A DNA stretch of 50,921 nucleotides, filler included, from Jimgerdemannia flammicorona (Eukaryota): NCBI GenBank assembly GCA_003990765.1. It is 2 parts of 2 records of this genome, joined end to end, with 100 filler letters (N's around TTAATTAATTAA, not from the genome) between each part and the next. Parts side by side here need not be neighbours in the genome. Positions count along the whole stretch, not along the records: positions 25,513 to 50,921 come from RBNJ01000837.1; 1 more part is not named here. One strand, 5' to 3'. The position numbers and the translations under genes were made by a program. The notes beneath the pieces were generated by a model. That model did not search any database, was not told the origin of the DNA, and was given only the letters and a program-made list of their open reading frames with translations. This document shows, piece by piece, positions 901 through 49,208 of the stretch (positions within the stretch are counted from its first letter, which is position 1; each line of letters starts with the position of its first letter).

Positions 901-2954
901 TGTAAGCACACAACCTCCAAGCTACCAAAATTACATGTCACCCTCCGAACAAGCCACTAAAATCACATGTGACCTCTGAACAAATCTGGAAATCACCTGC
1001 TTGATCATGAAGCTGAGTCAAACCGAAGTCACAGCACACAAAGCTGAGTCAATATGAAGTCACAGAACACAAGATCTACACAAATGGAATCTTACCAATC
1101 AGGATCAAATGCATATATACCAAGCACCAAAATGCATCAAATCAGAGAACCAAAACAAAACAACAACCACAACTTCCAAACACACAAACATGACCACCAA
1201 GATCTATACCCGCATCTGCACTGACATTTGGAATGCCATTGTCAACCGAGCCACACCCCCTCTGCCCCTCATAAATATCCATAGCCTAGCACCCCTCTAC
1301 TTCGTGGAAGCCCATTGGAATGCTCTGAACATGCTTAGCAAGGCCCACCGAATCGGACAAATATCAAGCTACTACCAGATTTGCTGCCTCCTGGAAGACA
1401 TGGTCAAACACCACCATGATACAGACATTACCAAGATGTCTCAATACCAGAAGCTCATTGCCCACAAACATCAAGAACTCTTCTATGAGTATAGTACCAT
1501 TATTCCCCACTTTCGAGTTACCACAAGTGAAATGATTGCTACCCTGTCCTATGGCCAAATCGATGACATGATACAAGAACTCAACCACAAGTACCTCAAG
1601 TATGTCGAAACCACAGACAGAACCTTCCCACACCCCAACGATCATATCCTGCAAATGCTCCAAGTTGGATATGCCATGAAGGACATCTACGATATAATCT
1701 ACTTCAATGAAGATAAAGCAGAAGACAATGATCCCTCTGACACCAACATGACCTCTAGCCAAGGATCTCTGCCAACCCTGATCACACTACCAACCTTGCC
1801 GATGAACTTACAACAATTCATAACAGCCTACGAGACTTATTGGAACAATGACCACTGGCACAAATACCAATCAGCATTTACCTCCAATTACTTCAACTAC
1901 AATGAAGAGACCAGAGAACACAACCTGTACCTCCAGACAACCCTAGAGACCGAACCAACCACTCCACCACCTGAGTACGAGTAACATAAACTACAGCTAC
2001 CAGCTTACTACAATTCTGCAACTCATAGTGCTGTAACGTACAGAAGGTATGCAGACAGTGAATCTGATGAAAGTGAAGATGATGCACCCCTCCTTTGCCC
2101 ACCAACACCTTATCCAGCATATGAGACAGACAATGCTATCTTGTGGGACAGAGATGAAGTTCCAATATATTATTACCTCAGCGAACAAGGAGAAGTAATC
2201 CGTGAACCACTCTTCCTAGATGACTACTTTATCAGAGATGATACAATCGATGGTGATGTTATCGAGGACTACCCAGACAGCACCTAAACCCATAAATAGT
2301 CTAGCAGTCATAGTATAGTTAGATTAGCTTTGTACAATGTGACTGTGAACTGACTCAGCAGTCTTGACATGTCAGATCACACTTATACTACATGACTGCA
2401 TTCTGACTCAGCAAAGCACTTAGTGCTACATCTATATTCAGCATAGCCCAGATAGCCCCTCACTAGTATAAATACCCACTCCCCCAGACCTCAGAATCTC
2501 AGACTCGAACACACAAGAACATTTCTGAATACTTCCCCACAATATCCCTTCACATAACTACTCCTAGTATAGCAATATCATAAATAGCAAATAAACCTAT
2601 TCAATAACCCACAAACCACTCTTAAGTAAATCTGCTCCCTGTTAGGTCCTACTCCTAACTCCCTCACGAAATTTCCTAATTGGGTATTGTCTGCAGCAAT
2701 ATACCAATTCAACTAAGCTGGTCTTAGTTTCTAGAACTTCCTGAAATAAGGAAAATCCTGAACATCCAGAACTAGTCCGAAAAAGGACTTTGGTTGAGAT
2801 ATCAACCTGATCTTGAAATCAATAAGCATAGAGGACGTACTCCATATGAAATTGATCTTGACCATAAAGAAAACAGTCTTCCAGAATATCCAGAACTTCC
2901 AGAAAACCCTTCCAGAACTATGTAACAGGTATCCTAAAAAGCAACCCTCTTACA
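901..2954 (+). mobile_element. 2054-bp solo LTR carrying an internal protein-coding gene
   Basis: Termini TGTAAG...CTTACA form a 6-bp inverted repeat. Perfect 5-bp TSD ATGAG at 896-900 and 2955-2959. TATAAA at 2467-2472 and AATAAA at 2590-2595. Short tandem repeats at 925-1075. No gag/pol. Confidence 0.88.
1190..2287 (+). pseudogene. LTR-encoded accessory protein of unknown function (365 codons, one internal TAA at 1982-1984)
   Basis: ATG at 1190 downstream of TATATA (1114-1119). Open for 264 codons, one TAA (probably from CAA), then 100 more open codons with an acidic tail to TAA at 2285-2287. The core motif matches ORFs at 45830-46746 and 23410-23880. Confidence 0.75.
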
Positions 2955-18440: not shown

Positions 18441-18451
18441 TACTGCTACCA
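18441..18451 (-). promoter_or_regulatory. Primer binding site, probably initiator tRNA-Met
   Basis: TGGTAGC two bases inside the 5' LTR is complementary to the GCUACCA 3' end of eukaryotic initiator tRNA-Met. Confidence 0.7.
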
Positions 18452-18453
18452 AG

Positions 18454-25412: not shown

Positions 25413-25512
25413 NNNNNNNNNNNNNNNNNNNNNNNNNNNNNNNNNNNNNNNNNNNNTTAATTAATTAANNNNNNNNNNNNNNNNNNNNNNNNNNNNNNNN
25501 NNNNNNNNNNNN
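25413..25512. other. Artificial contig-joining linker
   Basis: 44 N + TTAATTAATTAA (stops in all six frames) + 44 N = exactly 100 bp. Confidence 0.97.
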
Positions 25513-25835: not shown

Positions 25836-25839
25836 ACAT

Positions 25840-26327
25840 TACCAGCCCCTCACTCCTGCTCTCAGCACCCCATCCTCCATCAGTTCTATCCAGCCATACA
25901 TCCCGAACCATATTGAAATCTCCTCCAAGTATATCCAACCCAGCTTCAGCAAGGATCCCACTCTCCAGGAGCCCTTTCACCCAACCCACACACTCCCCCT
26001 GCACAGCAGGGCAGTAATAGGAGCCAACTGTAACTGGCTCCCAATCTGCACGAATCCACTCACCCCAGACCAGTCTCTCTCCCCAGCTCCTCACATCCTG
26101 TATCTTCCCTCTGCCTTTCTGAACCAGAATCCCAACCTTGCTGTTCCAAATCGCCATGCCACCCCATTCCTTAGTCCATTCCATCCTATCAGAATCATCC
26201 TCGCACCTGACATCCTGTAAGAGGAAGAGATTGGCCTCCAATCCCTTCAATCAAATAAAAATGTTCCTGCATCTAACTGCGCCCCTTAGCCCATTCACAT
26301 TCAAAGAAAAAATGTTAGTTGTACTAT
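25840..26327 (-). pseudogene. LINE ORF2 AP-endonuclease fragment
   Basis: (ATA for ATG)VQLTFFSLNVNGLRG...LFLLQDVR...GSYYCP...ILGGDFN. Confidence 0.88.
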
Positions 26328-26361
26328 TTATAATGAAATATGTTTTGTTTGCAATCAATTC

Positions 26362-28392
26362 CTACTGCTCCATGCCCATCTCCTCCTGTGCCATGTCCAG
26401 ATTATGTTCAGCCATCACCTCCTCCTCTTCAGCCCTCTGAGCCTCCAGTCCAGCCAACAGCTCATTCATCTCCTCATCAGCCTTCTCCTCAAACTCCTCT
26501 CTATACTCGATGCAAGCCTCCTGCCAAAGCTGCAACCTATGACACCTGTTCCAACAGTACTCAGCCTTCTCCCCAGCAACAACCGCCAACTCTGCCTCCC
26601 TCTCCTTATCCACCTCATACCCTTCCTCCTCCAGATACACTGCGAGAATTTCTGCCTTCAGTGCTATCGCCACTCCTTCCCCCTGCAAAATTCTTGCCCA
26701 GTGCTCGTCACCCATCCCATGCAAGTCCACCTCCCCCAGCTCTTCTGCTGCCAGGTTGTTCATCATCTGGTACATCCAAAGTAGGTTCCCCACCTCCTTC
26801 CCACCAGGAGTCACTGGCCTCCCTCCATCCAGCATCATGGTGTCAGCTCCAGCACTCGCATCCTCATCCCACACCTCCGGGATATCCACCAGTTCCTCCT
26901 CCCTGGCCACCACTACCTGGTCCCCATCCATTACCTCCGGAACACTGAATTTCACCTGCTGGGTCCCCACCATTGTCACGTCCTCCCCAGATTTGTTCCT
27001 GAAAGCCGGGCCATGCCTGATAAGAGGGGAAGGGGTGGGGGAGTTCTCCCAGACTTCCTCCCAAACCTCCAAGGTGCCATCTGCATATGGGTCACTAATC
27101 ATCCCCTCCTTTGTCTTCCCTGTCTTTGCCCCATCATTCCCACTCCTCTCACCAGCCCAGACACTTGCTCTGGCCCCTTCAGCTCCCATCTTCATGCTTG
27201 CATCCTTCTGTGGTCCACCCCCCAGTTTAGCCAGCAGATCCTTCTGCCTCTTCCACCCCTGAGCTCTTTCCCACTGCACCTTGTCCACTCGAATCCTCTT
27301 TCCATCCACTACCTCCAGGTGCGTCGACTCCTCAAAAGTCTTCCAGGCCTTGGCATGCCATTCCACAGCTCCATCCAGCTCCTCCAGCACTTCCAATAAA
27401 TCCTCCTCCTCTTCCTCACTTCCTTTCACCCACATCACCTTGCACAGGAATACACCCCAAACCATTTCCAAAGGCCAGTCCCTCATCTTCCCAGTAGCCT
27501 CCTTTCCAGTCAGCTGAATTCTCACATCCACATCCCCAGTCCTGAGCATGGTCTCTTCCCAGACCCTGAATCTGATATCCACCACCTCGCCATACTCTGC
27601 TATAACATCCTCCACTCTCTTCCTTGTCTCCATTGCCATCACCGTGGAGACTCCTTTCACCAGCAGTTGGACCACCCTCGGATCCCATTTCAAACACCTC
27701 GCCATCGGAACACACACCTCCCCAACCACCAACCCAACCCTCAGTGCCTCCTCCAGCAGTTCGGCCTCCTCAAAACCCACCTCCACCCCCTCCAGTCCCT
27801 TCAGGAACTTCACTGAAGCCACTCCAGCCACCTGCTTAGTGATAAGCCCCAACACCATTTTTGCCATCACTGCTAAGCCCCGGAAACACAGTATGACTGC
27901 AAATGCCGAGATCGACTTCTTGAGTAACGGAGCCACCGCCAGTCCCGTTACACCATCTGCCAGGTCCCCGGGCCTTGTGCCCTTCCCACCACTCGGCTCA
28001 CCATCAGCAGTCCCATCTAGATTTTTTTCCAGATCACCCATTACACCCCCATCAGCAGTCTCCGCCCCAGCTGCTACCCCCCCAGCTCCACCCTTATGGC
28101 CCTCCAGAGAGGTACCCCCAAGAGGTTGCTGCCTGGTAGCCTTCACCAGTACCTTCCCCTCTCATAGCCAGCTCTCCAGTCCAGCCCCTTGCCAACCCTC
28201 CTTCACCTTCTCCGCAAAGCTCACTCTGCCAGACCCTTGACCTCCAGCTCCACCCCCTCCTCCACTGCAGCCTCCTGCCAGCAGGCCCCTCATACTTCCC
28301 CCCAAGCTGGGGCCTCTCCCCACTTGCTGCCATTCAAATGCTCCAGGGCCACCCTGCTCAGTATGCACCTCCGGATGCTCATTGGTCGCCAT
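26362..28392 (-). pseudogene. LINE ORF1 protein (RRM-like core, acidic coiled-coil tail) with one in-frame TGA at 28162-28164
   Basis: ORFs 28162-28392 and 26362-28146 are in the same frame. VIAEYGEVVDIRFRVWEETMLRTGDVDVRIQL resembles the L1/Tx1 ORF1 RRM region. Lies directly upstream of the APE domain. Confidence 0.8.
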
Positions 28393-28490
28393 AATACTAG
28401 TAGCTTTTCTCCAGAAACTGTATTGAAAGTGTTGCCAAAGATTGTGTAACCTGAATGTTACCAGAGAAAGGTTGCCTTCCGCCTGAGACC

Positions 28491-31400
28491 TCTTCTATCA
28501 ATATGTCTTTTAAGAACTAAAGAACTACCTGATCTATGCCTCAGTCCTATATAATGTAGATCAAAGTCTAAAATTCACAACCACTACTAATGTATTGAAT
28601 TTTGCCATTAGAGCAGTCCTGTTATAAGATAATGGTAAAGAACATTATCTTATTGCTTTTGAGTCCCATAAGTTGGCCTCAGCTAAACAAAAGCTAGCCA
28701 CCTATGAGAAAGAACTACTGTCAATAATATATATACTAGATCACTAGTGATATTATTTAGAAGATATTGAGTTTGATATCATTACTGACTATCAATCTCT
28801 CAACTACTCTATTATACTTATAAGCCAAGTGGAGCCTTAAGCTTCAAACCTTTATCTGACAATTATCTATAATCCTGGTAAGATACTTGTAGTACCAGAT
28901 ACCTTATCAAGATACCTGACCTCACCACAATCATATAAGTCACCTTGGTATCAGAATTTCTAGATCAAATTAGATAAGCTTACAAAGAAGATATAGCTAC
29001 CACTAGAGTTTTCTCAAACAAGCTCAAGGATACATATACTGTTGAGAACAATCTGATCTATTATCAAGACCAAGTCTATCTACCTGAAAACATAAATCTA
29101 TATTATAAGGTTTTATAAGAACACCATGACTCTTCTCTTGCTAATTACCTTAGAATCAAGAAAACTGTCAAAAATATCTAATACTGCTATTATTGGTCAA
29201 ACATGATCAAGGAAATCAAGAACTATATTACTAGCTATAATCTATATTAGTGTAATAAGTCTACCAACTAAGTATCAACTGGTTTGCTATAACCACTACC
29301 AATTCCCACTAAAAAATTCGAGCAAGTTACAATAGACTTTGTAACTTAACTATCACAAACTCAATCTGATACTAACACTATTATCATATTTATTGACCAT
29401 CTGATCAAGACTACGATTGCTGAACCAATCACTATCAATGTTACTATATCTGAGATTGCAAGAATCTTCTTTAAGTCTATCTTCCATCACTATGGCCTAC
29501 TATGAGTAATTGTCAGTAATCATAATCTCAAGTTCACCAGTTATTTCTGACAAACTCTCTTCAAGACCCTGGGAACTCAATTGGCTATATTTACTGCCTT
29601 CTATCTACAAACTAATAGATAAACCAAGTACATGAACAGAACTCTAGAACAAATGCTTAGAAACTATATTTCTTATAAATAAGATAATTGGGACTACTAC
29701 CTGACCTATATAGAGTTTGCATACAACAATGCTGTCTAATCATCTACTGGTCTTTTCTCTTTTTAGTTACTCTATGATTAAGATCTCAAGATCTCTACAA
29801 GTTTAGTCTCTTTTAAGAAAAGCAGTCAAATATAAGTCCCTATCACTAAGAGTCTTATAGATAAAATAAATGAACTACTCAAGATTACCACCATAAATCT
29901 TTAGAAGGCTCAATAGTATTAAGCTAAGTATGCTAATAAGAAATACCATAATATCACTTATACTATTAAAGATCAAGTCCTACTGTCTACCAAGAACCTC
30001 AAGATATAATCTCAAGTCAACCACCTATTGAACAAGTTCCAATCTAAGTATATTAGACCTTTTGAAATTATCTTTTTTTTTTTTTTTTTTTTTTTAATGG
30101 ACTCATGTCCTGTGGATTTTTATTAGAAGAGAACCTAGACTATATAGGCCAAAACCCTCCCCCATCACCCACCAAGCACTGCCCCCCCATTAACCTAGGC
30201 TAGCTATTATCTAGCAGCTCAACCATACCAGGCGCAGTAGGGCCAATTAGGCCCACACCTCATTCTGTGCACCATACTCTCCCTACCACTAGAGAAAACC
30301 CAACCATATGCCAACAACCTAAAGTGCATGCCTGAGAACTCAATGTATATACAAGGCCATGCCCAAGCCGAATAGAATAGCCCCTGCCACCCCAAAGAGA
30401 ATGACAGGCAAAGAAAAAAACCCTCATCAAAGTACAACATGGTGGGTAGGGCCTGGTTCTCCCAGTTGAGGGGAGTAAAGGACTTACATATGAGGTGGGA
30501 GGAAACCCCCAATACCCCACTACTCAAGCTTGCAGGCCTCGATCACGTTGCCATGTCAGCTCCCAATTCCAGTTGAGTGCAGCCAAGATACCTGAAATGG
30601 GTAGCCTCGGGCCTCCTGACCCCCCCTGATGACTGGGGCCCAATCCTGCTGACCATCAAAAGAAGCTGATAGTGACACCTACCACCTAACCATGCCACAC
30701 CAATCAAAAGGCCCCACCGAAGCAGCATCTGCCCCAGCCCTGATGACTGCCCCCAGCCTAGCACCCTACTGGTTCACCATTATCACCCTTCCTCCTATCT
30801 GTGATGGCCATCTCCTCTCCCATCCTGACAATACCTGAAAAGCAGTCACTATGCAAGAACTGCACTTGCTGGGAAGCTTGCCAAAGCCAGAGGGCCCCAC
30901 CACAGACACTGAGGACCTGCAGATAACCTACACTGAGCACTTGATGCCCAAGGTCGGCTGACTCCCTACGTAGCCCGAGATACACCAAGACAATACCTTG
31001 TTGGTGATAGCAAAAGGAAGAAGGTGCTGCACCAAAATAAGTATACCCCAGATGCAGCCGAAGGTACCAGAATTCGCAAAAAAGTGGAGGAAGCACCGAT
31101 CCGACACCGATAAAGGGGCAACTAATCACCATTGCCCTCCTCCACCATGCCCCTGTGCACAGCAAACCAACCTGAGGTAGAGGGGGTAATAATAGGGGAA
31201 AGGGGACTCGGAAGGTCATCTACCAAACCTTGTGATCAGTAAGGTAGCAGAGAAAGGAGCTGTCTTTTGAAATTACCAAATAAGTCTCCACATCCTTCTA
31301 CTACCTCAAGCTACCTGAAACTATGAGAGTATGTCCAGTCTTTTATGTATTATATCTCAAGATCTAGTTCAAGACTTTAAGGCAAAATATATTGCCTAAT

Positions 31401-33229: not shown

Positions 33230-34488
33230 AGTTGCTATCTCAATAGAAACTATACCAAATTAGAAAGAAGGTCAAGGATTATATAACTAAGGTATAGGCT
33301 CTATAATTAAATAATATAGAAAAGATTTACAAGCTCTTAGAGATTATCAAGATAGGAAAGAAAGTTCTAATATATTGGAACATAGTAGAAGCTTTATAGT
33401 ATGAAAACTAGAGCCTAAGTAGAAAGGATCTTACTTTGTATAGAATATAAAAGAGACTATCTTTTAGATATAAAAACTCTCAGACATAATTATCTCTATA
33501 ACAATTTATCAAAACTAGCTCAAGAAGTATTATAACTAGCTAATAAAATAATACTGCAGTCCTTAAGATCACTAGTACTATATAATGAGTTATAGAAAGA
33601 CAGTAGTATTCTACTAAGTTACTAATTATAGAGAGATTCTTTAATAGTTTTCAGAGTATAGTATAGATATACTTATTATAAATTTTATATTTTAAGATCT
33701 ATCAGAACTGGACTGAGTTTTAGAAATACTTCAAGTTGAAATAGCTACTAAACTTAAAGTTAGAAATAGAAAAATAAAATTGGATTAGAAAGTGTCAGCT
33801 CTCTTATACTCAAATCACTATTACTAAAAAATATATATATAAGTTATTTAAGATGAATGAGTCAGCTCTAGCTTATTTCTAAAGAGTAGTCTCAGGAGAC
33901 TTCAAATATATCAGAAGATAATATTGAGAGAATATAATAATACAAATTATATAATATAAGGAAATTCAACTAATCAAGGCTTGGGAGTTTGAGTAAATAG
34001 AATATTTTAGAGATAAATTACCTATTCAGAAAGAGGTTGTGACAGTTGATCTAAATTAGTAATATAAATTAGAGGAATAGATATTTAATTATAATATCTG
34101 AATCCAATTTTCAAATATAGTATAACCTTATAAATAGTAGTTATTTTGCAAATATAGAAACTTTAACAATTACTAAAGATTCTATAGATATTGAAATTCT
34201 TACAACTATTAAAATCTCAGTAAATATCAAAAGATGCAATACTTATAAAAAGTAACTTATAGAAAATATAGTCATAACTTAGCCATCTTATAGCTAGTAA
34301 ACTTATATAAATATTTCTAGTATCTAAAGTAAATAAATCTCAGAATGAAATAGTTCAAAGCAAAGAGAAAGTAAGAGAACTAGTAAGCCTACAGATAGAT
34401 ATATTTTAGAGAACTCTGTAGAGTTAAAGAAGATTAAATTTTTAAGATACAGGAATTTGATATACAGTTATATATCTGCTATATTATA
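33230..34488 (+). mobile_element. Ty3/Gypsy 3' fragment (integrase tail, accessory ORF, PPT, LTR 34038-34488), same family as 22030-24374
   Basis: Colinear with 23110-24374. Accessory ORF ...KYFKLK.LLN...LSYTQITIT...IYKLFKMNESALAYF.RVVSGDF. PPT AGAAAGAGG before TGTGACAG. Confidence 0.8.
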
Positions 34489-34857
34489 ATATATAAATAT
34501 ATAACTTTATATTATACTCTCTTTTAGATTAATTTATATTACTCATCAGTAAGTGAGAAATATATAACTTATATAACTTTAATAAAATTATCTTTTGTAC
34601 TAAAAAAAAAAAACTATAAAAATTTATATAATTATAATATATTAATTAGTACTTTTAAACAATTTAAATTAATTTAATATCAAATTTAATTTGAAATTAA
34701 GAGTTAAACTTTAAAATATAATATAGCTTAATTAAAATATATCTATATTTAATAATTTTTATTATACTGAATCTATCTAGATATGATAAATCTAATAAGC
34801 TAAAAATTATTAAATTTAAATATATTTTTATTAAATTATTAAATTTTAAAAATCTAT

Positions 34858-36960
34858 TGTATCATGCGGTTGATATCTCTAGTTGCTTCAAGTACAGCTC
34901 AATGTGCCACTTGGTGGAGTGCACGGTATATGACTGAGTGCATTTGTGATGATTGCAGGTTGATGGTCATATGATCGGTTCGTCCGATTCATATGGTGGA
35001 GGCTTGGTTATTTAGTGGTTGATGAATTTTCCTAGTGGCAAATTACTTCTTGAATGTATATGGTTTGTGGCACAGCGGGTAAAAGGGGAACTCATCCATC
35101 TGACTTGTTAGGTGAATAACAACAATGCTGGCTTTTCTAAGCTAAGTATCCTTGGGTTCCTTGGCTGGGGTCTTAACACTTGAATGGTGGGTCTCGAATG
35201 TGCAGTCTTGAACCTCGAATGGCAGTTGGTTCTGAATGCACAGTGGTCAGGTCGAATGCACGATAGTTGGGCTGGCAGGATCTCAGCGGCAGTTGGCAGT
35301 TTTTATGTGGCTTTTCCTTTAGCAGTGGATCTTTAAACTGAACTAAATGGCTTTTCATGTGGCTTTCCTTAGCAGCGAATCTTGAATGTTTTCCATGGTA
35401 AGAGAAAATTCTTTAACTCAAACCTCGAGTGATCATTGCTCTAGTTATCTTGTTCTCAGAATTTATCTGGTCTCTTGGAGGCAGTGAGGTTTCTTTGTAA
35501 TCCTTTTTACTTTTAAACACAAACTGACTGAGGTTTATTCACTCTAAGATATAGGGTTATTTATACAAATTTGCTAGCTATAGGGGTGGGCTAAGGTATA
35601 CTATGTTGTGGTGGTTTAATTGCTGAATATGGGTGTAACAATTGTTTGCACCGAATTGGGATAAGATGAGTGCTAGTGCTGGATATGGATGTTGCAATTG
35701 TTTGCGCTGAATTGAAATAAGATGAGTGCTAGTACTGGATATGAATATTGTGGATGGTATCACTGAAAATGGATGTTGCTGACTTGTTGACAAACGTTGG
35801 CTGACCGGACTGAGGAAACAGACATTGAATCACTGAATGGTAAAGTACCCTTCATCAGTGATCCAATCATCTTGCTGGGTTGTGACTTCTTCATCCTATT
35901 CTTCAAAGGGTGGGAGCGCTGGCCAGGAGGTGAGGGGGTAGAATTGTGGCCAATCATCTTTGATGACATTCTCCAACCCTTAGACTGCTTGAAGGCAGAC
36001 AGAGGATTGATAGATTCTTTGTTCCTCCTCTTCTTCTTCCTCAGATCCTTCAGTTTCTGTATTGGTAGGAACTTCTGGGACTTCTTGATTTGGTTCCCAA
36101 ATGATGAGGTGCGAATTGTAGCTGACAGGGAGGTGAGTAGTTGGGGTTGCTCCAACAGGTGTTGTAATGGTAATGGGTGGTCCTTCGAAGATTTCCATGA
36201 GACTCATTAGGTGACCTTGATGGTTGTCTCAGAGTGGAGTGGTGTGAAAGCCTGGTTGAGTGGGCTCAGTTTGTTGGCTTTCTACAGCAACCTGGTTACT
36301 ACCAATAGAGTCGGCTACTTCTGATTCTATCCAGTCTGCATCTTCAGTTGAGAGATGGGCAAGACTTACAGCAGTCACTCCTTGTAAGTATGCTATAGCC
36401 CAGGGAATATGGCAGAAGATTTGGTAGACACAGAGAGCTCTCTTGATTAGCCAGCTGGTGGTTAACATTTTGGCAATGAGGTCTTTCTGGTCACCTTCTT
36501 GGGTTTCATTATGAAGGCGGTGTCCAATTTCGTAATCATACCAGAGGGTCATTCATTCAGTGGTATCTTTGAGCTGTTGGGTCATTATGTACCGGTAATT
36601 GATGAAGTGTCCAAGATTCTCGGTGTAGAAGTTCAGATGTTCAGAGGTGTTTGGGTGCCAAATAGCCTTTTTGATAGCTTCAAGGATTAGAGTCTTTGGG
36701 CCAGGCAAGGGGGAAGAGTGGCGGGAGGTCTGGTTGGGGCAGCAGATGAGGTATTGTGTAGTGAGTACTTGTTCTTTGGTACTGATTCCTGAGGTGGAGT
36801 ATGGTTTTTTAAATAACATAGTCTTCCTTTTGGCTCGGATTATCATTGCTCCTTTTGGGGTGATCACCTAATGGGTCAGGCTGTCTATTCGATTGTCATG
36901 CCATTATGTCATCTGATCTTAGCAGTCACCAGTACTCCATTGTTAATTACATACATCACA
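34858..36960 (-). repeat. 3' LTR (2103 bp)
   Basis: TGT...ACA termini; direct repeat of 44821-46952. Confidence 0.95.
35840..36754 (-). pseudogene. LTR-encoded accessory protein, 3' LTR copy
   Basis: ORFs 36553-36867, 36229-36552 and 35980-36207 are in one frame. The start codon appears mutated to ATA at 36752-36754. Confidence 0.72.
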
Positions 36961-36999
36961 TCTGCCTCTTGCAAAATTAGAGCCGTCCTCAGTGGTGAG

Positions 37000-39900
37000 G
37001 GTTACACAGAGTTGGGTGGTCTTAACTCCAGGGATGAGCAGAATGTCAGCACATTTGTGAGGACTGGCCATTCTTGTCTAGGGCGAGGGCTCTCATAGTT
37101 ATAGCTGGGGGTTCGAACCCATCGGAAATAGTATTTCTTGTAATCTGAGGCAATTTCTTAGTAATAATGTCTGTCACATGGATGGGCTTGAATCTGGTTC
37201 CAACATTGTTGGCTTTCTTGAGTTCTGAGTGAAATGTCTATCATATCTCCAGTAGAGATGACACAGACAGAGTGAACAGGATTGTTCAAATGTATTTTAC
37301 TTCTCTTGAGTAGTAGAGTCTTATGTGGTTGTAGTGTATCTTGGTCTTGAGTATAACTCCATCCAAGGTCTTGAGTTGATAAGTGTAGTTCGAGAATACT
37401 TAGTGTATGAGATAGGGGCCTTCCCATTTTGGTTCAAGCTTGGCACTCCAATTTCCTTCTATGATGGTACGGTATACCAGAACCTTTTGTCCAATGAGCA
37501 GGGGTTCGAGGTTGGCTTTGCAGTCGTAGTACCTCTTTTGTTGTTCTTGTGCCTTGGCGATAAATTCTCGTGCTTGCTGGCATATGTCATGTAACCGAGT
37601 GATCTCTTCTGTAACTCATTTTGACAGATCTAGCTGGACTGTTTCAGTAGGATCTTGTGCTTCTCAGCCATACACCAAATAGAAGGGGGTCTGTTGGGTA
37701 GTGGTTGCCTTAGAGGTACGGATGCTGAACAGAATTGCCGGTAGATAGATATCCCAGTTTAGTTGATCTCTGGTTCTACTGAGACCTCGCTTGATGGTCT
37801 GGTTCATTCATTCAGTAAGTCCATTTGCCTGTGGGTAGTAGGCTGTTGTTGGTTGTAGCTTGATCTTGAAGTTGCTCGCAAAGGTCTTCATGGCTTGGTT
37901 GATGAATTCTCGGCCTTGGTCTGTAATGATTTCCTTGGGCACACCATGGTGGCTGAAAATTTCATCATACAGGATCTCAATAATTGTCTGGGCATTTGTA
38001 GTCTCAATGGTGAAGGCTTCAGGCCATTTTGTCAAGTGGTCTTTGATAGTGAGGATGTAGCATCTTCCTCAGCTAGTTGCTGGTAAGGGTCCAATAATAT
38101 CTATTCCCAGTCTTTGAAAGGCTCCAGCTAGTACTACAATCAGTATTAATGGTGCTCTATCAGTAGGTTTTTGTCAGTATCTTTGGCAGATATCACATTA
38201 TTGAATGTGTGTTGAAATTTGTTTTCTCATCTTAGGCCACCAGTATCGCTTCTTGATTCTTGCAATTGTGGTGCCAATTCCTCGGTGTGCATTTTGGTCA
38301 TAATTTGTTGTCAGGATCTTCAATATTTCTTCCTCTCTTGGAACTCGGGTGTACTGCTCTCCTTCTACTCTCCAAAGTTTGCCATTGCCTTCTTGGAATT
38401 TCTTGAAATTTCTTTGGATAAACAACTTGTAGGCTGGTTGGATTCCTTTCTTGAAGCTTCTATGGTGTAGACTCCAGGTGAGGGTGAGGTGCAATTCTTG
38501 GTTCATTTGGGTGAGCGGGAAGCAGCCTTCTCTTGTGGGGACTCCTTCCCTTCTTGTTGGTTTTACGGGATTCTTGACAGGGTATTGACATTGGAATTTT
38601 TAGCACCTTTCTTGTAGACAATAGTGAACTAATTCTTGCAGAGATATGATCCATCTAGCGAAGATTCCTGAGGGCTCTGGCTTATTGAACAACTATTGTA
38701 GAGCTTGATGGTCAGTGATGAGGGCAAATCTCTTTCCCAAGAGATAGTGTCGGAAGTGGTCCACACCCCAAACTACTGCTAGGTATTCCAACTTAGTGGC
38801 TCCATAGTTTGCTTGTGTTTCATTTGTGGTCTTGCTAGCATATTCAATAACATGCTCCCTCTTCTGGTCATCTTGCTGAGACAGAATTGATCCAAGTCCT
38901 AAGGCTGAGGCATCAGTTGCCAGGATGAATGGTTTGCCAAAGTCTGGTCACACCAGGACAGGGGCTTCGGTAAGGGCCTTCTTGAGACTTTTGTTGTTCT
39001 TCTTTCCAGTAGAATGGTTGGTCCTTCTTGGAGATATCTTGGAGAGATACTGCCTTATCTGAAAACCTTGGGATGAATCGTTGATAGTAGGATACCAGCA
39101 TAAGAAAAGATAGGGTCTCCTTTACTGAGGTTGGGGTTGGGTAGTTCTTGACTTTCTCCACTTTGCGGGAGTCAGTATGTGTTCCTTGAGCTGAGACAAC
39201 ATATCTCAGATATTTGACTTGATGTTTTCCAAAGAAGTACTTCTTGGCATTGAGTCTGAGTCCTGAATTTCGAATAGTATTGAATACTGCGGAGGTCTTG
39301 CAAATGCTGCTTGAATGTCTCAGAGTAGATGATTACATCATCTATGTACACTAGTACATTTCTTCCAATGAGGTCCCGGTAGACATAGTTCATCATTCGT
39401 TGGAATGAGGTGGGTGCATTGCAGAGTCCAAAGGGCATTCATAGGTATTCATACTGTCCTCTTCTGGTGATGAAGGCCATCTTGCAGATATCTTCTTTGG
39501 CAATAGGTATTACTTGGAATCCTTGGAACTAGTTGGTAGTGGTCATGTATTTGGCTTTTCTGAGGGCATTGATGAGGTCATCAATTCTAAGCAGTGGGTA
39601 GGTATCTTCTGTAGTGACTTTGTTGAGTTTTCTGAAATCCACAACTAATCTCCATCCTCCTTTCTTTGGTACTATGATTGCTGGTGAAGCCCAGGGGCTT
39701 GATGATGGTCTGATGACTCCATTTCATAGCATTTCATCTATGTGTTGTTGTTCGAATTCAATCAGATGATGTGGTGTTTGGTAGAGTCATTGTCGGATTA
39801 GTCTTGCATCTCCAGTATGTATAGGGTGTTCTCCATATTGATATGGTGGGAAGTTATCATATGTGGTGGTAAATATATCTTTGTACTCCTCTATCAACTC

Positions 39901-42900
39901 CTGTATCTGTTGTTGCTGGTCCTTAGTTAGAGTTGTCTCGATGTCGATGGCTTTGATTGCTGAATTTGCTGAGTCTTCCTCCCTAGTACCATCAGTCTCA
40001 CCAGAGAGGACTTGCCATTTCCCAAGAATTTGAAGACTTCTTCCTTATAGGTGTCTATCAGTGGTTTGAAATATCCTAGTGTTGTTCCCTTGGGAATAGT
40101 TATCACTTTCAAGCCCAAGTTTCTGATAGGGATGTGGATCAGTGACATCTGGTCATAAATTTGTTCTTCAGCCAGGAGGATGTGGTATTTCTTTTGAAGC
40201 TCCAGTGATAGTGCAAATATCAAGTTGTTTGCTTCTACTGGTAGATGCACATCTAGGCCTTTTTGCTGGTAGGGCTGCAGGAGGATGTCTTTTCTTGCTC
40301 AGATTGGGCAGCAGATGTGGGGTCTCATTTGTCGGAATTGAGCAACTGTTGCTAAATGAATCTCGATAGATAGTGTTCATGGATTTCTATTGGTGCTTCC
40401 AAAGCCTCCTTGTCCTCTATTGGTATCTTCTAGTTGGTCTACCTCTTGGATGGTCGGCTGTAATGTCTTGATAAATAGGATTTGGCAGATGGCTTCCATA
40501 GGACTGAAGAATCAGCTGGTTCTACTAGAATTGTGAATAATGGCCTTCAAGGGACCTCGGTAGTCCTGATCGATGACTCCTCCTTCTACTGTGACTCCTT
40601 TGGTTGCTAATGAGGATCTTGAGGCCAATTGTCCATAATACCCAGGTAGTATAGCGAGTGCAATCTGTAGGTCAAAAATCCTGGTACTTCTGGGTTGGAT
40701 TCTTGCTTGGTAGGAGAGGCAGAGGTCATAACCAACTGATCCTTCTGTTTGTGCAAGAGGTGGCTGTGCCTAGGGTGAAAGCAGCTTGACCTGGATAATT
40801 GGTTGAGCTTTGAGAAATAGCACTTCAGCTGTTGCCATTGTAGGTGAGAAGTCCATATGCTCCAGTTTGAAGAAAGGTCAGTGAGCTCCTGTCTTTGAGT
40901 TTCTTGTATAATTGAATCCAGTCTTTTCTAGAGGGTCCAGAGCTTCTATAAGGATGAAGGCAAGATTGATACCTTCTTTTTCTTGATGAGGGTGCAGTAC
41001 CAGCGAATGATGGCAAGAACTTCCAATGGTAGGTCCCAGATAGAGGTCTTGCTCTTGAACTTGCAATCTCCTTCATTGTTGATTTCTTTGCACTTCCGAC
41101 AGGTCCAGAAAATTCAAAGTTCTTGCAGGGTAGGATCCTTTCTCTTGACTTGGCTCTTGTAGACATCTTCGCTGAGGTGAACATCTCGATGTTCACACCA
41201 GTGGCAGGTAAAGGTCTTTCCACAATCACAATGTCCCTTCTTGACAAAGTCTTCATTTCACTATTTGACTTCCCTACTGGTAGGGAATCTCTTCCGATAC
41301 TTATCATAGGTGGGCTGTGTGATCTGGAGGGCCCGGGTGATAGTATAAGAGCTGCTGCTTTCTCCTTCGATGGTAAGGGACTCGTATGTTTGGCAGGCGA
41401 GGATCTTCTGTCCTCCCTTATAGGTCTTCTTGAAGGTCTTCAGGGTTGGAGGTTGTATTCGACTGTGGGATGGTGCTTACTTCAATTCATCCTTATCATC
41501 AATTTCTGGCATTGGAACCTTCTTGAGATCCAGGATTCAGCAATTGCTGCAATCATCTCTTAGTGAGTGGAAGCTGATGAAATGTTTACATATGCCTTGA
41601 CAAAAGGCTCGCATGATCCGATTTTCTACCAGTGGTGGTGGTGGTTGAGCAGATGGTCCTGCAAACTCAAGTGCTGCCCTTGTATTAATGGCTCTATCAA
41701 TGCTTTCTTCCAGACCTTCAACACCAATAACTCTAATGAAAGAGTCTTCTTGTTTGCTTTCTTGGTCCCTTGGGGCATCAAAATCACTTCCTAATTCTTA
41801 TAGGAAATTGGCCTCACTTTCATCCTCAGTAGTAGTGGGGGTGTTGCCATGTCCTTGCCATTCTGTTTCTGAGGCTTGATTCGTCCTTTTGGATAATCCT
41901 TTCGAGTCAATGGGCACCTTGTGCTTCTGTCCATGAATGGAGAAGACCAGGAGTTGTTTCTTGATATCTACATTGGCTCCAACTCGGCTTAACCAGTCAG
42001 TTCCCAGGATCAGGTCATAGGAGGTTGCAGGGGTCATGACAGCTTTGGGTACATTGAGGCAGGCCTTTCCGACTTGAATGGGGATGTCTCTGACAAGTCC
42101 AAGGGGTGTGGAAGCTGATCCGTTGGCCATAATAACTCTTGCTTTGGTTCCTTCATCTATTCCCCATCCAATTCACTCCAACATCCTTTGGGTGATGATG
42201 CATACTGCTGCTCCAGTATCAACGAGAATTCTGGCATTTTCACCATGTACTTTTCCATTGGCGAGTCTTGTAGATTGATGTTCATATCACTGGCTCTCAT
42301 GGGCTGTGTGGATAGTGCTAGGTTATTGAGTGTGTGGTCCTTGGACTGGAAGTCTCTTGGTATCTTCCTTGGCTTCTTTCAGGAATTTTCGCCTGACCTC
42401 TAGTGCATTCTTGAGGACTTGCTCAACTGTAAGACCAGCATTCTGTAGGCGGATATGTTCCCAAAGTGAGGCTGCTGCATGGGGCTTGCTGCTTCTTCAG
42501 TGTCTTGGTCCCTTGGGGTATAGTCTCTCATTCCTGATGGGCATTTCATCAGCTGAAGATTCTATGCTCATATGCTCATCTTCTTCAAGGTCTGGCAGGG
42601 TAGAGCTGGGGGTTGTCCTAGATGGTCCGGCTTCTAGTTCAGGAGTATCTCTTCTAACTCACTTCTCCTGTTCTTGTGGAGTATCTGAAGAAGAATGGCC
42701 ATATCGCAGATGCTTGCCTGTGGATATTGTTACTGGCAGTTGAGGTGGGGGTTTCTTTGTGATCTTCCTCATCCTCTGGTCTCTGTGGGGGCAGCTTCCT
42801 ATGTCACCTTGGATGGGAAAGCCTCGAAGTATAGGTAGATGTCATCTTCTTGACCATGGAGCCAGGCTGCTTCTTCTTCCATCTCCTGAGTCTCTTCATC

Positions 42901-44751
42901 TACCTGAAAGAGGTTGACATTTCTGTCATTGGACTGGGTGGATTGGTTTCTTGGACAATTCCTCTGGATGTGGCCTTGATTTCCGCAGTTGAAGCAGGTG
43001 GGACCATAGGAACCAGTCACTGATGAGACTGTAGTTGCAGCTGGTAGTGTGGGGGCAGGACCTCTGTTGTCTTGTTGCTGGTAGTCTGGTCTGTTATCAT
43101 GACAGTAGTCTTGTTGTCTTCTACCTTGGTTTTTCAGCTGGGCAACTGCGATGGCCAGGTCCTTCATTTGCTTGGTGAGTATTGTCATGGGGTCTTCTTG
43201 AACTCTTGATGGTGGCTGCTGCTGTGGTTGCCTAAATGGAGTCAGATTTGTGGGTGCTAGTCTGTTCTTATAGTTGGCTATCTGGGCTCTGAGGAAGGCA
43301 TTCTCTTGCTCCATGGTTGTTCCTCGGGTCCTTGGGGTTTCAGCTCAGATTGGCTCATGATAGTCTTGTACTTGTTGTACTGGTCTATAATCTGCTTTCC
43401 AACATCCTTGTGCTCCAGCAACTTGCTGTTCAATGTTTCAATATCCCATCCTGATAACTTGCCTTCGGAGTTCTGAGTATAAGCCATTGAGGAAGGTAGT
43501 TGAGGCTAGAGCCAGTTGGACTGCTGGTTGAAGATTTGTCTTGATCATTTGAGCTTGAATCCAATGGTAGAAACTCTTGGGAGTTTCATTGGCAGCTTGG
43601 CTCATATAGGTCAAAGCCTCCTATGCTTCTTGTTGGCACTCGAATCCATTGAACTGGGCATGGAGCCAGGCTTTGTGAATCATGTACCTTGCTACATGGT
43701 TTCTATCAGATTGAAGGCCATCATTCAGTTCCTCTGCATGGATTCCTCCTCCGGCTTGCTTGGCTTGATTATACCTCTGTAGGGCTGGTCCTCTCAGGAG
43801 TGACTCCACAATTCTGAGTTTTCTTGCAGCATCCCATTGTTTGGCAGCTGCTTGAACTTCAATTTCTCCAAAGAATTTCTTGATGTCTTCATTGTCTGCA
43901 CCATGGAACTTCTGAAGGTAGCTCATGTCTGGCTTGTCTTCACTATCTGAGTATTGTTCAGGGGTAGGGGATCTGGCAGATCCTTGAGGTGATGGGGAAG
44001 GTGGTGGTGCTAGTACTTGATGAACTAGTGATGCTGGCAGAGGGTGGTATCTTGGTGAGGGTGAGGGTAATCTGGCTCTTCTAATTAATGCTGGGGTTGA
44101 AGTTCTGGGTAGTGGTGGAGATCTTCTGATTGACTAGTGATAGTGGCAAGGTGTGAGTGACCAGGGTACTGAAGTTCGAGCAACTGATGGTGGGAGTGGA
44201 CTGATATAACTGATAGTGAGTTCGTCTGCCCCTTGCTGTTGTGAAGTAGTGAGGTCTTGTTTGCCTTGTTGTGAGTTTGTGTTACTGTCTGGATAATAGT
44301 GTAGGTTGAATTCGTCTCTTTGATGGTCTGATCCCCAATCGTCGTCTTGCTCTGGTTGATATGGATGGTAGTCCTCTTCTCCTTCTGATGTTTCAAAGTA
44401 TACCCGGTCCAGTAGAGTGACTCAAGTAATGACAGTAGTTATGTAGTCACTTCTGTCTGAGTTCATCCTATGGATAAGAGTCTGATACTTCTCGGGAATA
44501 TTCTCTTCTTCTTCTTGGTCTAAGTCTTGGATCTGAAGGAGTGGTTCTGGTTGTCCTCTGAGTTGTCTCCTTTCTCTTGAAGTCAAACCGTAATCTGGGT
44601 CACTTCTTTCTTCTGATTCAATTTTCTGGCTACAGGTGTTAAATAGGGTCCTGGCTACTGTTCTGACAAGGGTGTGGGCTTTCTTTTCTACTGAGGAGGG
44701 CTGTTGCTGACCCTGGTTTGGTTGCTGACTTGGTCCTGCTAAGTTCTCCAC
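37000..44751 (-). pseudogene. Gag-Pol with many CGA>TGA/CAA>TAA-type stops; ends approximate
   Basis: KFHGADNEDIKKF gag; CFNCGNQGHIQRNC knuckle; ILVDTGAAV protease (~42205-42232); dUTPase SVGYDL/ASRSSL/GGVIDQDY/GGFGST (~40390-40800); MPFGLCNAP and VYIDD RT; integrase IITDQGREF and QANGLTE. Confidence 0.93.
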
Positions 44752-44800
44752 TGTAGATAGCTGGGTTCTTGAGCCAAATGGTCAAGTCTTTTGAAAACTT

Positions 44801-44817
44801 TCTCAGTTGAGCCCCCA
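44801..44817 (-). promoter_or_regulatory. Primer binding site, probably tRNA-Pro
   Basis: TGGGGGCTCAACTGAGA next to the 5' LTR resembles the tRNA-Pro PBS (TGGGGGCTCGTCCGGGAT in MLV) after CpG decay. Confidence 0.7.
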
Positions 44818-44820
44818 AAA

Positions 44821-46952
44821 TGTAGCATGCAGTTTGTATCTCTAGTTGCTTCAAGCACGGCTCAATGTGCTACTTGGTGGAGCATGCAGTATATAACTGA
44901 GTGCATTTGCGATGGTTGCAGGTTGATGGTCATGTGATCGGTTCGTCCAATTTATATGGTGGAGGCTCAGTTGTTTAGTAGTTGATGAATTTTCCTAGTG
45001 GCAAATTACTTCTTGAACATATATAGTTCATGGCGCAGTGGGTAAAAGGGAAACTCGTCTATCTGACTTGTTAGGTGAATGACGATGGTGCTGGCTTTCC
45101 TAAGCTAAGTATCCTTGGGTTCCTTGGCTGGGGTCTTAACACTTGAATGGCAGGTCTCGAATATGCGGTCTTGAACCTCAAATGGTGGTTGGTTCTGAAT
45201 GCACGGTGGTCGGGTCGAATGTACAATGGTTGGGCTGGCGGGATCTCAGTGGCAGTTGGCAGTTTTTATGTGGCTTTTCCTTTAGTGGTGGATCTTTAAA
45301 CTGAACTGAATGGCTTTTCATATGGCTTTCCTTAGTGGTGAATCTTGAATGTTTTCCATGGCAAGAGAAAATTCTTTAACTCAAACCTCGAGCAATTGTT
45401 GCTCTAGTTATCTTGTTCTCAGAATTTATCTGGTCTCTTGGAGGCAGTGAGGTTTCTTTGTAATCCTTTTTACTTTTAAACACAAACTGACTGAGGTTTA
45501 TTCACTCTAAGATATAGGGTTATTTATACAAATTTGCTAGCTATAGGGGGGACTAAGGTATACTACATTGTGGTGGTTTAATTGCTGAATATGGGTGTGA
45601 CAATTGTTTGCACCGAATTGAGATAAGATGAGTGCTAGTGCTGGATATGGATGTTGTGGGTGGTATCGCTGAAAACAGATGTTGCAATTGTTTGCACTGA
45701 ATTGGAATAAGATGAGTGCTAGTGCTGGATATGGATGTTGTGGATGGTATCGCTGAAAACGGATATTACTGACTTGCTGACAAATGTTGGCTGACTGGAC
45801 TGAGAAAACAGACATTGGATCACTGAATGGTAAAGTACCCTTCATCAGTGATCCAATCATCTTGCTGGGTTATGACTTCTTCATCCTATTCTTCAAAGAG
45901 TGGGAGCACCAGCCAGGAGGTGAGGGGGTAGAATTGTGGCCAATCATCTTCGATGACATTCTCCAACCCTTAGACTGCTTGAAGGTGGACAGAGGATTGG
46001 TAGATTCTTTGTTCCTCCTCTTCTTCTTCCTCAGATCCTTCAGTTTTTGTATTGGTAGGGACTTCTAGGACTTCTTGATTTGGTTCCCAAACAATGAGGT
46101 GCGAATTATAGCTGACAGGGTGGTAAGTAGTTGGGTTTACTCCAACAGGTGTTGTAATGGTAATGGGTGGTCCTTCAAAGATTTCCATGAGACTCATTAG
46201 GTGACCTTGATAGTTGTCTCAGAGTGGAGTGGTGTGAAAGCCTGGTTGAGTGGGCTTGGTTTGTTGGCTTCCTACAGTGACCCGGTTACTACCAATAGAG
46301 TCAGCTACTTCTGATTCTATCCAGTCTGCATCTTCAGTTGAGAGATGGGCAAGACTTCCAGCAGTCACTCCTTGTAAGTATACTATAGCCCAGGGAATAG
46401 GGCAGAAGATTTGGTAGACATAGAGGGCTCTCTTGATTAGCCAGCTGGTGGTTAACATTTCGGCAATGAGGTCTTTCTGATCACCTTCTTGGGTTTCATT
46501 ACAAAGGCAGTATCCAATTTCATAATCATGCCAGAGGGTCATTTGTTTAGTGGTATCTTTAAGCTATTGGGTCATTATATACCGGTAATTGATGAAGTGT
46601 CCAAGATCCTCAGTGTAGAAGTTCAGATGTTCAGAGATGTCTGGGCACCAAATAGCCTTTTTGATAGCTTCAAGGATTAGAGTCTTTGGGCCAGGCAAGG
46701 GGGAAGAGTGGCGGGAGGTCTGGTTGGGGCAGCGGATAGGAGGCATTGTGTGGTGGGTACTTGTTCTTTGGTGCTGATTCCTGAGGCAGAGTATGGTTCT
46801 TTAAATAACATAGTCTTCCTTTTGGCTCAGATTATCATTGCTCCTTTTGGGGTAATCACCTAATGGGTCAGGCTGTCTATTCGATTGTCATGCTATTATG
46901 TCGTCTGATCTTAGCAGTCACCGGTACTCTATTGTCAATTGCATATATCATA
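44821..46952 (-). repeat. 5' LTR (2132 bp)
   Basis: Direct repeat of 34858-36960 with the terminal CA mutated to TA. TATAAATA at 45521-45528 and AATAAA at 45497-45502 on the - strand. Confidence 0.95.
45830..46746 (-). pseudogene. LTR-encoded accessory protein, 5' LTR copy; 3' end approximate
   Basis: ATG at 46746 with TATTTAAA at 46800-46807. ORFs 46564-46746, 46219-46542 and 45970-46197 are one frame broken only by TAG/TGA/TAA stops that each need a single C>T change. Confidence 0.72.
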
Positions 46953-47139: not shown

Positions 47140-47540
47140 TATAATATAGCAGATATATACTAGCAGAAGTATAGAAGTTCTCAGATACAGAAGTAAGTAA
47201 GTTCAAAGTATATCTGTCTGCAGACTTACTAGTTTCTTATCTTTTTGCTTGAACTATTTCAATCTGAGATTTATTCACTCTTAAATATTAGAGATATTTA
47301 TACAATTTTACTAGCTATATAGTAATTAAGTTAGAACTGCTTTTCCTATGAGTCATTTTATATAATTGAGAGATCTGTATATTTGTATAATCTGTATAAT
47401 TGTCAGTTTTGTATAGCTAAGAGAATTGTACAACTGAGAGATCAAGTGACTGCTAACTATATACTATACTATATCAGGAATCAGATTTAGATATCATGAT
47501 CCCTCTGATTGTTATTCCTAATTCAGATCAACTATCAATA
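47140..47540 (-). repeat. Solo LTR of the 23888-24374 / 34038-34488 family
   Basis: The reverse complement matches GAGTGAATAAATCTCAGATTGAAATAGTTCAAGC and the terminal CTGCTATATTA(C/T)A. Confidence 0.8.
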
Positions 47541-47704: not shown

Positions 47705-49208
47705 TCAATCCTCGCGATCTTTCAAGCGATACTTGCTTCCGATAAATAATGACACGGCAGGGTACACATTCTTCGGGAGATTTGTCCAGGCTGTCCCGTA
47801 ATTGGTTGCATTAATGGAAAGAGAACCGGTACGATCATTACGGTTGAAATGCAATGTAATGACATCTCCATTTTCAACACGTCTGCCGTAGTCCTGAGGA
47901 TTTGATAGATTCCATGTTCGTTGAGACCCGCCGCCAGAGTTGAAAGCCCATGCATATGGCCGGTTTGCCATGTTACAATTAAACATGAGGAACCCCTCAC
48001 TAACGAATCCAATCTGGCAGTTGCCTTTTGGTCCCATGTCTTCAACGATAATGTCCCATTCACATAAATCATTGTCAGATGTTGTCCCAGAGATGGAAAC
48101 CCGCGCTGTCTCCATCGAATGCGCCGTTGGAAGCTCCACGGCCTGACCGTCTTCCGAAATGACCACGTGAGGACCAACTTTCGATCGATCCCACTGAAGA
48201 CTGGGATTAGGACGCCGCTTTCCACGATATGCGGATGGATGTCCCGTACGGCAAATGGTATTCCTGAAAGCGCGGTCGAAGAGGGGAGACATTTCGGCTA
48301 AGGAATCGACTGCCTCAGTAAGGCTCTTGAGTCGATGCGGACAGACGAGTGTGAAGTCCAAGTGGCTCATCAATTTGAGCAGAAAGGTGCGTGATGCGCC
48401 ATCTCCCAGTTGGACTGTGGTGCCGCACCCTTCCACCATATCATTGATGTCATGTAGAATGGCATGGCGCACCGAAGTTGATGGTGCATTCTCATTGCGT
48501 GCCCAGACCCAGTCAATAATACACAGCATCAGGTCATGCTCGGGTGTAGAAATGGTCGCCGCCTCAGTGAGGAGCAACTCTAGGGCCTCTTGGGAGAGAT
48601 CGGTCAGCTCGCGGATGGCAAATCTTATGAGAGCGGAAGGGGTTTAGGAGCACATCGTAAAGGTCCTTGCTGGCTTCATTCCTTGGGATGTCCGTTACAG
48701 CTTCATTGAGCAGCGATGACGCAACACCAAAATCTGCGAGGTCGTGGGCACTCTCCAACACCATTTCCACGAGTTTCGGGAGAAGGAGATAGCCTGCTGC
48801 GCGGTATATTCGTACCACAATAGATATGTCGATAGTGTTGTCGATGGTTTCAGTGTAAATGAAGCCGAGGATGATGTTTAGCACTGTGGAGGTGATGTCG
48901 TTGAGGACGACGCGTGGAGAGGAACCTTCTCGCATATTTCCGTACAGCATCGCCTTGAAGACTAGGCACCTTTGAGAATATCATTCAAAGTCAGGTTTGA
49001 GGAAAGCTATATATGAAAATGACTGAAACATTATGCTGGACAAGAATCAAAATCGGACAAACCTTGCAGCCAGCACAGCACGACATGCACCTAGCTCGAC
49101 ACCATCAGCACAGACAATGGTCACATCGTGATAGGTTGAGTCTTTCCAGATAGAGGCGATGTCCTCTTTGAGACTAATACCACTGTCGGATTGCGCGATC
49201 TTGTTCAT
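47705..49208 (-). pseudogene. BTB/POZ-BACK-SPRY(B30.2-like) protein gene; exons 49208-49063 and 48969-47705; frameshift near 48625
   Basis: Exon 1 YHDVTIVCADGVELGACRAVLAAR splices through a GT..AG intron (49062-48970) to CLVFKAMLYGNMRE...ILGFIYT (BTB). C-terminal EWDIIVE...IGFV...GDVITLHFN...VYPAVSL is SPRY-like. Confidence 0.85.

Follow-up and report, generated by a model that had tools for sequence, protein, structure and literature searches.

The long terminal repeat (LTR) from a Ty3/Gypsy retrotransposon lineage in Jimgerdemannia flammicorona carries a whole protein-coding gene on its sense strand, as shown by homology to intact relatives, in which the gene measures about 290–340 codons. 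The element lies in a window of 50,921 nucleotides, the whole stretch of DNA that was analysed (assembly GCA_003990765.1; positions 25,513 to 50,921 from RBNJ01000837.1). We consider that the observations as a whole are best explained, with a probability of about 0.6, by an LTR that combines this protein gene with a self-contained transcription unit having two starts. The LTRs and the two window copies of the gene are as follows.

44821..46952, minus strand: 5′ LTR, 2132 nt, with an ATAG duplication at 46956-46953 (repeat scan and pairwise alignment).
34858..36960, minus strand: 3′ LTR, 2103 nt, with ATAG at 34857-34854 (repeat scan and pairwise alignment).
45820..46746, minus strand: LTR-borne gene, 5′ copy, ATG at 46746, 308 codons, terminal TGA at 45822-45820.
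35830..36754, minus strand: LTR-borne gene, 3′ copy, with ATA at 36754-36752 where the ATG would be and a 2-nt deletion right behind it.
Stops in the 5′ copy: TAG 46566-46564 (private); TGA 46221-46219, TAA 45972-45970 and TAG 45888-45886 (shared).
Stops in the 3′ copy: TGA 36555-36553 (private); TGA 36231-36229, TAA 35982-35980 and TAG 35898-35896 (shared).

The gene lies, start and stop included and in the sense orientation, within each of the two repeats of an element flanked by target-site duplications. An initial annotation, made from the DNA alone, had described the same sense-direction frame in both LTRs, encoding LILEAIKKAIW, WYDYEIGHRL and an acidic run, and these peptides were found in place, in a frame that runs over 46746-45820 in the 5′ LTR and 36753-35830 in the 3′ LTR. 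The stated length of about 300 codons agrees with the 308-codon frame, but the frame is not open: four in-frame stops interrupt each copy, three of them common to both and the first one private in each. The ATG that it assigned to the frame is present in the 5′ copy at 46746, but the 3′ copy has the ATA and the deletion listed above. It was also right that the first stops differ (TAG as against TGA), but comparison of the two copies opens at most the first 175 codons, so that the ancestral frame can be rebuilt from them only to that extent.

To find relatives we used the LTR frame read through, with X at every stop, as the query of a word-index search. Three proteins were found, the best of which, P0004, is an uninterrupted protein of 325 residues that is 64% identical to the window frame over 98% of the query (E 2.5e-127). 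The alignment of P0004 with the window frame has three indels and no frameshift over 98% of the frame length, and the P0004 cluster contains two further full-length members of 324 and 331 residues. When 1.84 billion representatives were searched with a profile, whatever their length, eight proteins of 40–342 residues were obtained at E≤1e-3, and a further profile search gave seven. A second metagenome scan yielded two loci, L001 and L002, with uninterrupted open reading frames (ORFs) of 291 and 323 residues, whose products are 30–32% identical to the window frame; no relative was found in the first metagenome scan or in the viral-contig and genome-contig collections. Fused forms were absent among the eight representatives, whose maximum length was 342 residues, and the window has no further copies beyond the two LTRs and a solo LTR described below. 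All relatives that reach the stop positions of the window frame have an amino acid there. These results uphold the proposal of a gene-carrying LTR, since the protein family has uninterrupted members of 291–342 residues, which come from public metagenome data, and the gene occupies the same position in L002.

The relatives also bear on the possibility that there is no gene and that the DNA, being stop-poor and A/C-rich, simply happens to be open here. Among 1000 dinucleotide shuffles, the observed open length was reached by 148 for the 5′ LTR and by 40 for the 3′ LTR, so that the open stretches of the window, taken alone, are within chance. What lifts the frame above chance is its homology to uninterrupted relatives, which were detected by tblastn at E-values of 1e-17 to 1e-131 and down to about 30% identity; in addition, the ORF lengths of L001, L002 and the solo LTR were each reached by 0 of 1000 shuffles. 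A chance origin of the frame is thus already refuted, and we give it practically no credence.

Mismatches between the two LTRs within the frame are spread almost evenly over codon positions 1, 2 and 3 (20, 19 and 16), indicating that decay after insertion was neutral. At the first shared stop, a TGA, relatives carry R, Q or W, and P0005 terminates at the same place. At the other two shared stops, TAA and TAG, relatives carry Q and R/Q, and inheritance appears to be the simpler reading for both. The element probably inserted with at least two stops already in its LTR gene, and, if so, the gene was not needed in cis.

As far as its sequence can be compared, the LTR protein matches no known family. 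The two read-through window frames had no Pfam match at E≤1, a Pfam scan of 15 family members gave a single stray match in one of them (NpmA, E 0.026), no PDB chain matched the protein at E≤1, and the protein atlas returned no usable match. Kinship with the element's own gag was rejected on an hhalign probability of 0.12%. The relatives have in common a conserved helical domain of about 225 residues, maintained with about 30% identity, and an acidic tail that varies; distant members are 24–32% identical to P0004. The distant members have motifs in common around W-H/Q-D/E-Y-E-I-G, HQ-I/V-F-R-H-x-P, and DNPDQ followed by F-E/Q-G-P. Two AlphaFold models, with mean predicted local distance difference test (pLDDT) values of 39.2 and 39.5, agree only on helical residues 20-190 and on a disordered acidic tail. 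The acidic tails of P0015, P0016 and P0020-P0024 contain repeated hydrophobic-acidic motifs (DLISF, DLITF, DLIIF), and an LNF motif stands at or near the C-terminus in most distant members, an ending that the window's own subfamily does not have. Our guess is that the protein most likely serves the element in trans, either as a regulator or by counteracting host silencing.

The gene is set among putative signals, which are arranged in the LTRs as follows.

46800..46807, minus strand: upstream TATA-like box TATTTAAA, whose end lies 54 nt ahead of the ATG position; twin at 36815-36808 in the 3′ LTR.
45601..45764, minus strand: tandem repeats that separate the gene from the core block, with 2.0 copies of an 84-nt unit.
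35621-35767, minus strand: tandem repeats of the 3′ LTR, 56-nt unit, 2.3 copies, with a 28-nt indel between the LTRs.
45480..45530, minus strand: core block of the 5′ LTR, with TATAAATA at 45528-45521 and AATAAA at 45502-45497, then CCTCAGTCA and a GT-rich run.
35565 onward, minus strand: TATAAATA of the corresponding block in the 3′ LTR, with AATAAA at 35539-35534.

The TATA-like box that the initial annotation had placed about 55 bp upstream of the ATG was thus recovered in both LTRs, at 54 nt. Exactly two TATA-like boxes on the sense strand and one AATAAA occur in each of the 3′ LTR, the solo LTR and L002; the 5′ LTR has six such boxes, four of which are not present in the 3′ LTR. Across the 3′ LTR, the solo LTR and L002 the upstream box lies 61-76 nt before the ATG position (61 nt in the 3′ LTR), and the distance from the second box to AATAAA is 26 nt in the 3′ LTR and L002 and 123 nt in the solo LTR. 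In L002, TATAAAA at 4-10 is followed by the ORF at 69-1040, the second box TATAAATA at 1218 and AATAAA at 1244 (block at about 1218-1249). L001 has one box, 80 nt before the ATG, and its contig stops before a second box could appear. The core block has no mismatch between the two LTRs of the window in 77 aligned columns, which by itself is no evidence of constraint because the block is without CpG. The block of L002 that holds the second box and AATAAA is nearly identical to that of the window, and 17 of 17 bases around AATAAA are the same, while the proteins are only about 30% identical.

This conservation is relevant to the possibility that a host gene was picked up by chance and hitch-hikes as cargo in a long LTR, with no role for the element. 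A protein without a known family or a link to retroelement functions, in an element that moved with a broken copy, is what such cargo might look like. However, the association is old, in that proteins about 30% identical precede the same core block; no relative longer than 342 residues was found among the 1.84 billion representatives; and the sense strand of the ORF shares the C>G, A>T bias of the rest of the element. We regard cargo of this kind as quite improbable.

The motif positions fit a two-promoter reading, in which transcription would start at two places and the LTR would by itself form a transcription unit. One start, set by the upstream TATA box, would yield an mRNA of about 1.3 kb that includes the ORF and terminates within the same LTR, at its single AATAAA. 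The second TATA box, 26 nt before AATAAA, would direct the start of the genomic RNA to the initiator (Inr)-like CCTCAGTCA, just past the signal, so that AATAAA would be missing from the 5′ end of the genomic RNA and present and used at its 3′ end. U3 would then measure about 1.46 kb, R a few tens of nucleotides and U5 about 650 nt, and reverse transcription, by copying U3 to both ends, would leave two gene copies per insertion and one per solo LTR. Since the genomic RNA must cross the 3′ LTR, the first efficient poly(A) site there would fix the end of R, and with that end of R the start would have to be upstream of about LTR column 1475, which leaves the second box or the first. The second box is favored because it is followed, at about 36 nt and just past AATAAA, by the Inr-like TCAGTC. 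A TATA-like box near the end of the LTR (5′ LTR column 1997) was rejected as the genomic promoter, because the 3′ LTR does not have it and because the strong poly(A) block would come ahead of such an R in the genomic RNA. The roughly 650 nt past AATAAA inside the LTR (44821-45480 and 34858-35490, minus strand) would be unusually long for U5; within the LTR pair, this stretch has diverged the most (89.9% identical), and it contains short internal direct repeats, seen by eye.

The same motifs can be arranged differently. The gene might lie in R rather than U3, with the upstream TATA box as the sole promoter, the ORF as the first cistron of the genomic RNA, an R of about 1.3 kb and the block at 45528-45497 as a poly(A) signal only. 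By the usual grammar of such signals, the succession of TATAAATA, TATATC, AATAAA and a GT-rich run does read as a complete poly(A) signal, and the upstream box lies at a similar distance in all units examined. Such an arrangement, however, would put the start of gag more than 2 kb behind a 300-codon ORF and would require the poly(A) signal to be skipped in the 5′ LTR, at 1.3 kb from the cap, but recognized in the 3′ LTR, whereas the Inr-like TCAGTC about 36 nt behind the second box, which is kept in L002, suits a start there. We therefore judge a gene in R to be improbable.

Another possibility is that the protein is made in the manner of sag of mouse mammary tumor virus (MMTV): splicing would link a donor close to the 5′ leader with an acceptor in the 3′ LTR to give a subgenomic RNA, and the upstream TATA box would be incidental. 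Between this box and the ATG, both LTRs have a pyrimidine-rich stretch ending CCTCAG|G that could serve as the acceptor, and sag, according to passages of PMC6692512, is produced through spliced RNAs that come from the LTR promoter and from an internal promoter. Against splicing, no comparable acceptor is found in the same interval of L001 and L002, while the TATA box is kept, and the solo LTR of the other family retains the layout of box, leader and ATG without a donor. This origin of the mRNA appears unlikely.

Several points weigh against our reading of an LTR-borne gene with two starts of its own. Both starts and the poly(A) site are putative placements by motif, and TATAAATA with the nearby TATATC and AATAAA resembles a fungal poly(A) signal, composed of an efficiency element and a positioning element. 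The second box need not be a promoter, then, and may be part of the poly(A) signal. L001 and L002 are contigs of 1.3-1.5 kb, L002 being a candidate LTR by virtue of the shared core block; the protein family is a small one, with contigs that in nearly every case are shorter than 1.7 kb. The shared TGA could represent two parallel hits instead of inheritance. Both window copies are dead and the element seemingly moved with a broken gene, which allows a dispensable gene. Finally, mean pLDDT values of about 39 in both models provide no structural lead to function.

A solo LTR of another family in the same window has its parts in the same order.

901..2954, plus strand: solo LTR with TG..CA ends and a 5-bp ATGAG duplication at 896-900 and 2955-2959.
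1114-1119, plus strand: TATATA.
1190-2287, plus strand: ORF with one TAA (1982-1984).
2467-2472, plus strand: TATAAA.
2590-2595, plus strand: AATAAA.

This order of parts, and the difference between the 5-bp duplication here and the 4-bp duplication of the Gypsy element, had been noted in the initial annotation and hold. P0012, the single relative of the solo-LTR product, reads Q at the position of the TAA. The further claim of an architecture shared across lineages stands for the layout but not for the proteins: an alignment of the Gypsy-LTR peptide with the 1190-2287 product had been set beforehand as a test, and no significant alignment was obtained (BLASTP E 2.1; hhalign probability 0.25% and 0.37%). 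A common origin of the two LTR proteins was accordingly rejected, there being no significant sequence or profile similarity. The Gypsy LTR and the solo LTR share the architecture alone, a layout that is paralleled and not inherited, as far as their sequences tell.

That a second, unrelated family shows this layout within the same 50 kb suggests a design that recurs and not an accident. A bolder and more tentative extension, which we think is probably wrong, is that the LTR is a general 'gene slot' in this fungal lineage, in which unrelated genes were installed at least twice and from which dispersed LTRs serve elements in trans. Each gene would follow a TATA box of its own and precede the poly(A) site of the LTR, and there would be two autonomous copies per full element and one per solo LTR, with thousands of LTRs forming a multi-copy gene family. 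As an example of such service, acidic tails with hydrophobic-acidic motifs might blunt methylation- or small-RNA-based silencing. Service in trans would continue after gag-pol has decayed.

The Gypsy element that houses the LTR gene has the following further parts.

44805..44820, minus strand: primer-binding-site-like stretch, TGG 3 nt past the 5′ LTR (by eye).
36961..44820, minus strand: decayed interior, with Pfam matches in all three frames.
43344-42799, minus strand: gag zinc knuckle (Pfam).
42172-41798, minus strand: aspartic protease (Pfam).
40769-40512, minus strand: dUTPase, between protease and reverse transcriptase (RT) (Pfam, E 1.7e-19).
39723-39529, minus strand: piece read as RT, without a Pfam match.
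39438-39172, minus strand: RT (Pfam).
38947-38693, minus strand: RNase H (Pfam).
38599-37808, minus strand: integrase (Pfam).
36972-36961, minus strand: purine-rich tract just 5′ of the 3′ LTR (by eye).

The order of domains, gag(CCHC), protease, dUTPase, RT, RNase H and integrase, with the integrase past the RT, is that of Ty3/Gypsy elements, and every frame is broken. The 4-bp duplication ATAG stands on either side of the element; in minus-strand reading the 3′ LTR starts with TG and the 5′ LTR with TA, a transition, and both end with CA. The window contains no tRNA gene, and hence no tRNA was matched to the primer-binding-site-like stretch. The provirus, which had been called complete, is so in structure only: its LTRs, target duplication and domain order are in place, but the longest stop-free sense stretch of the 7.9-kb interior is 204 codons, and the domain matches are spread over three frames.

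Of the 2102 positions aligned between the two LTRs, 154 differ (92.7% identity); transitions account for 148 of these differences, and CpG occurs at 0.30 of expectation. We also compared the element with soil-metagenome contigs from one run of one study, which at 80% likeness or more extended over every one of its 30 bins. Differences between the window and these contigs included A>G (136) and T>C (87), as compared with G>A (60) and C>T (50), the window base being more often A/T where the soil contigs carry G/C. The LTR gene holds none of the 40 differences listed, out of 365. The excess of transitions, the depletion of CpG and the drift to A/T fit cytosine deamination in an old, probably methylated copy; in the mycorrhizal fungus Rhizophagus, CpG methylation of transposons is reported in a passage of PMC8647823. 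The window insertion is old and dead, with gag-pol and both copies of the LTR gene broken.

A second Ty3/Gypsy element occupies 12838-18857, with LTRs of 403 nt that are 93.5% identical and with longer open frames for protease and RT, of 275 and 184 codons. Because no gene fits into these LTRs, the LTR gene is not general to the Gypsy elements of this genome. The interior of this second element (14011-15478) has an inverted relative, 68% identical, at 28483-29942 inside the 24-33 kb region, which implies that several decayed retroelements are nested in the window. The AT-rich flanks of the gene-carrying insertion share inverted stretches that are 74-80% identical (34243-34407 versus 47205-47365, and 23892-24295 versus 47176-47535), so that this element landed within or beside another repeat family. 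A GC-rich island at 25461-28300 (47-55% GC, strong skew) starts with an N run and simple repeats and contains a 599-codon open frame without a Pfam match (26362-28161, minus strand); it is flanked by diverged 1.3-kb direct repeats at 23112-24394 and 33243-34507 (70% identical). A probable host gene at 47708-48980, minus strand, encodes a BTB domain (E 1.9e-08) and a SPRY domain (E 6.9e-06); the two frames that carry them overlap, which implies that the gene has an intron or a frameshift. As a lead only, the atlas cluster nearest to it has its highest frequency in Mucoromycota (score 0.89).

Among known systems, MMTV sag, which lies in U3 of the LTR, is the nearest precedent for an LTR-borne gene. 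In both cases a complete sense accessory ORF of about 300 codons is contained in the LTR and hence occurs at both ends of the provirus. Expression of sag apart from gag-pol by more than one promoter is described in part of PMC6692512. Unlike sag with its splicing, the gene described here is proposed to have a dedicated TATA box directly before the ORF, and its place in U3, upstream of the start of the genomic RNA, is predicted from the positions of TATA and AATAAA. The LTR protein is also without sequence relation to sag (no Pfam match at E≤1) and has no evident membrane anchor, and its carrier is a Ty3/Gypsy retrotransposon without env in a fungal host. The accessory coding sequences of human and simian immunodeficiency virus nef and foamy virus bel/bet reach into the 3′ LTR and overlap only its edge, unlike the present gene, which is whole, start and stop, within the LTR and survives in a solo LTR. 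The LTRs of Cassandra, a terminal-repeat retrotransposon in miniature of plants, carry a 5S rRNA-like unit, an RNA gene of pol III; here, too, an independent transcription unit would be housed in the LTR and duplicated with it, but it is a protein gene and its host is a fungus.

Additional ORFs of LTR retrotransposons are placed in the internal region, before gag or behind pol, in the passages available from PMC7264820 (plants) and PMC6431247 (a review), and bdelloid rotifer retrotransposons with additional ORFs are treated in part of PMC5408684. These are likewise extra genes of unknown function carried by Ty3/Gypsy elements, unlike the present gene in being internal and not wholly inside the LTRs; the phrase 'in the LTR' has no occurrence in PMC7264820. 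Fungal Gypsy elements with a dUTPase between protease and RT, as in our element, are PosPlaTy3-5 and Tmt1 (portions of PMC2864245 and PMC6431247), for which the same portions mention no LTR-borne gene such as that found here. In the open-access full texts that were searched, supplements excluded, we found no precedent for a protein gene inside a retrotransposon LTR.

LTRs are usually treated as non-coding control regions and are masked by annotation pipelines. If a conserved gene lies wholly inside the LTR, the element would double its accessory gene at each insertion, and solo LTRs, which are usually counted as dead remnants, could remain expressed genes. MMTV sag, the only precedent that has been studied well, is a factor that manipulates its host. 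If our reading is true, a class of retroelement accessory proteins may hide in the masked sequence of large, repeat-rich fungal genomes.

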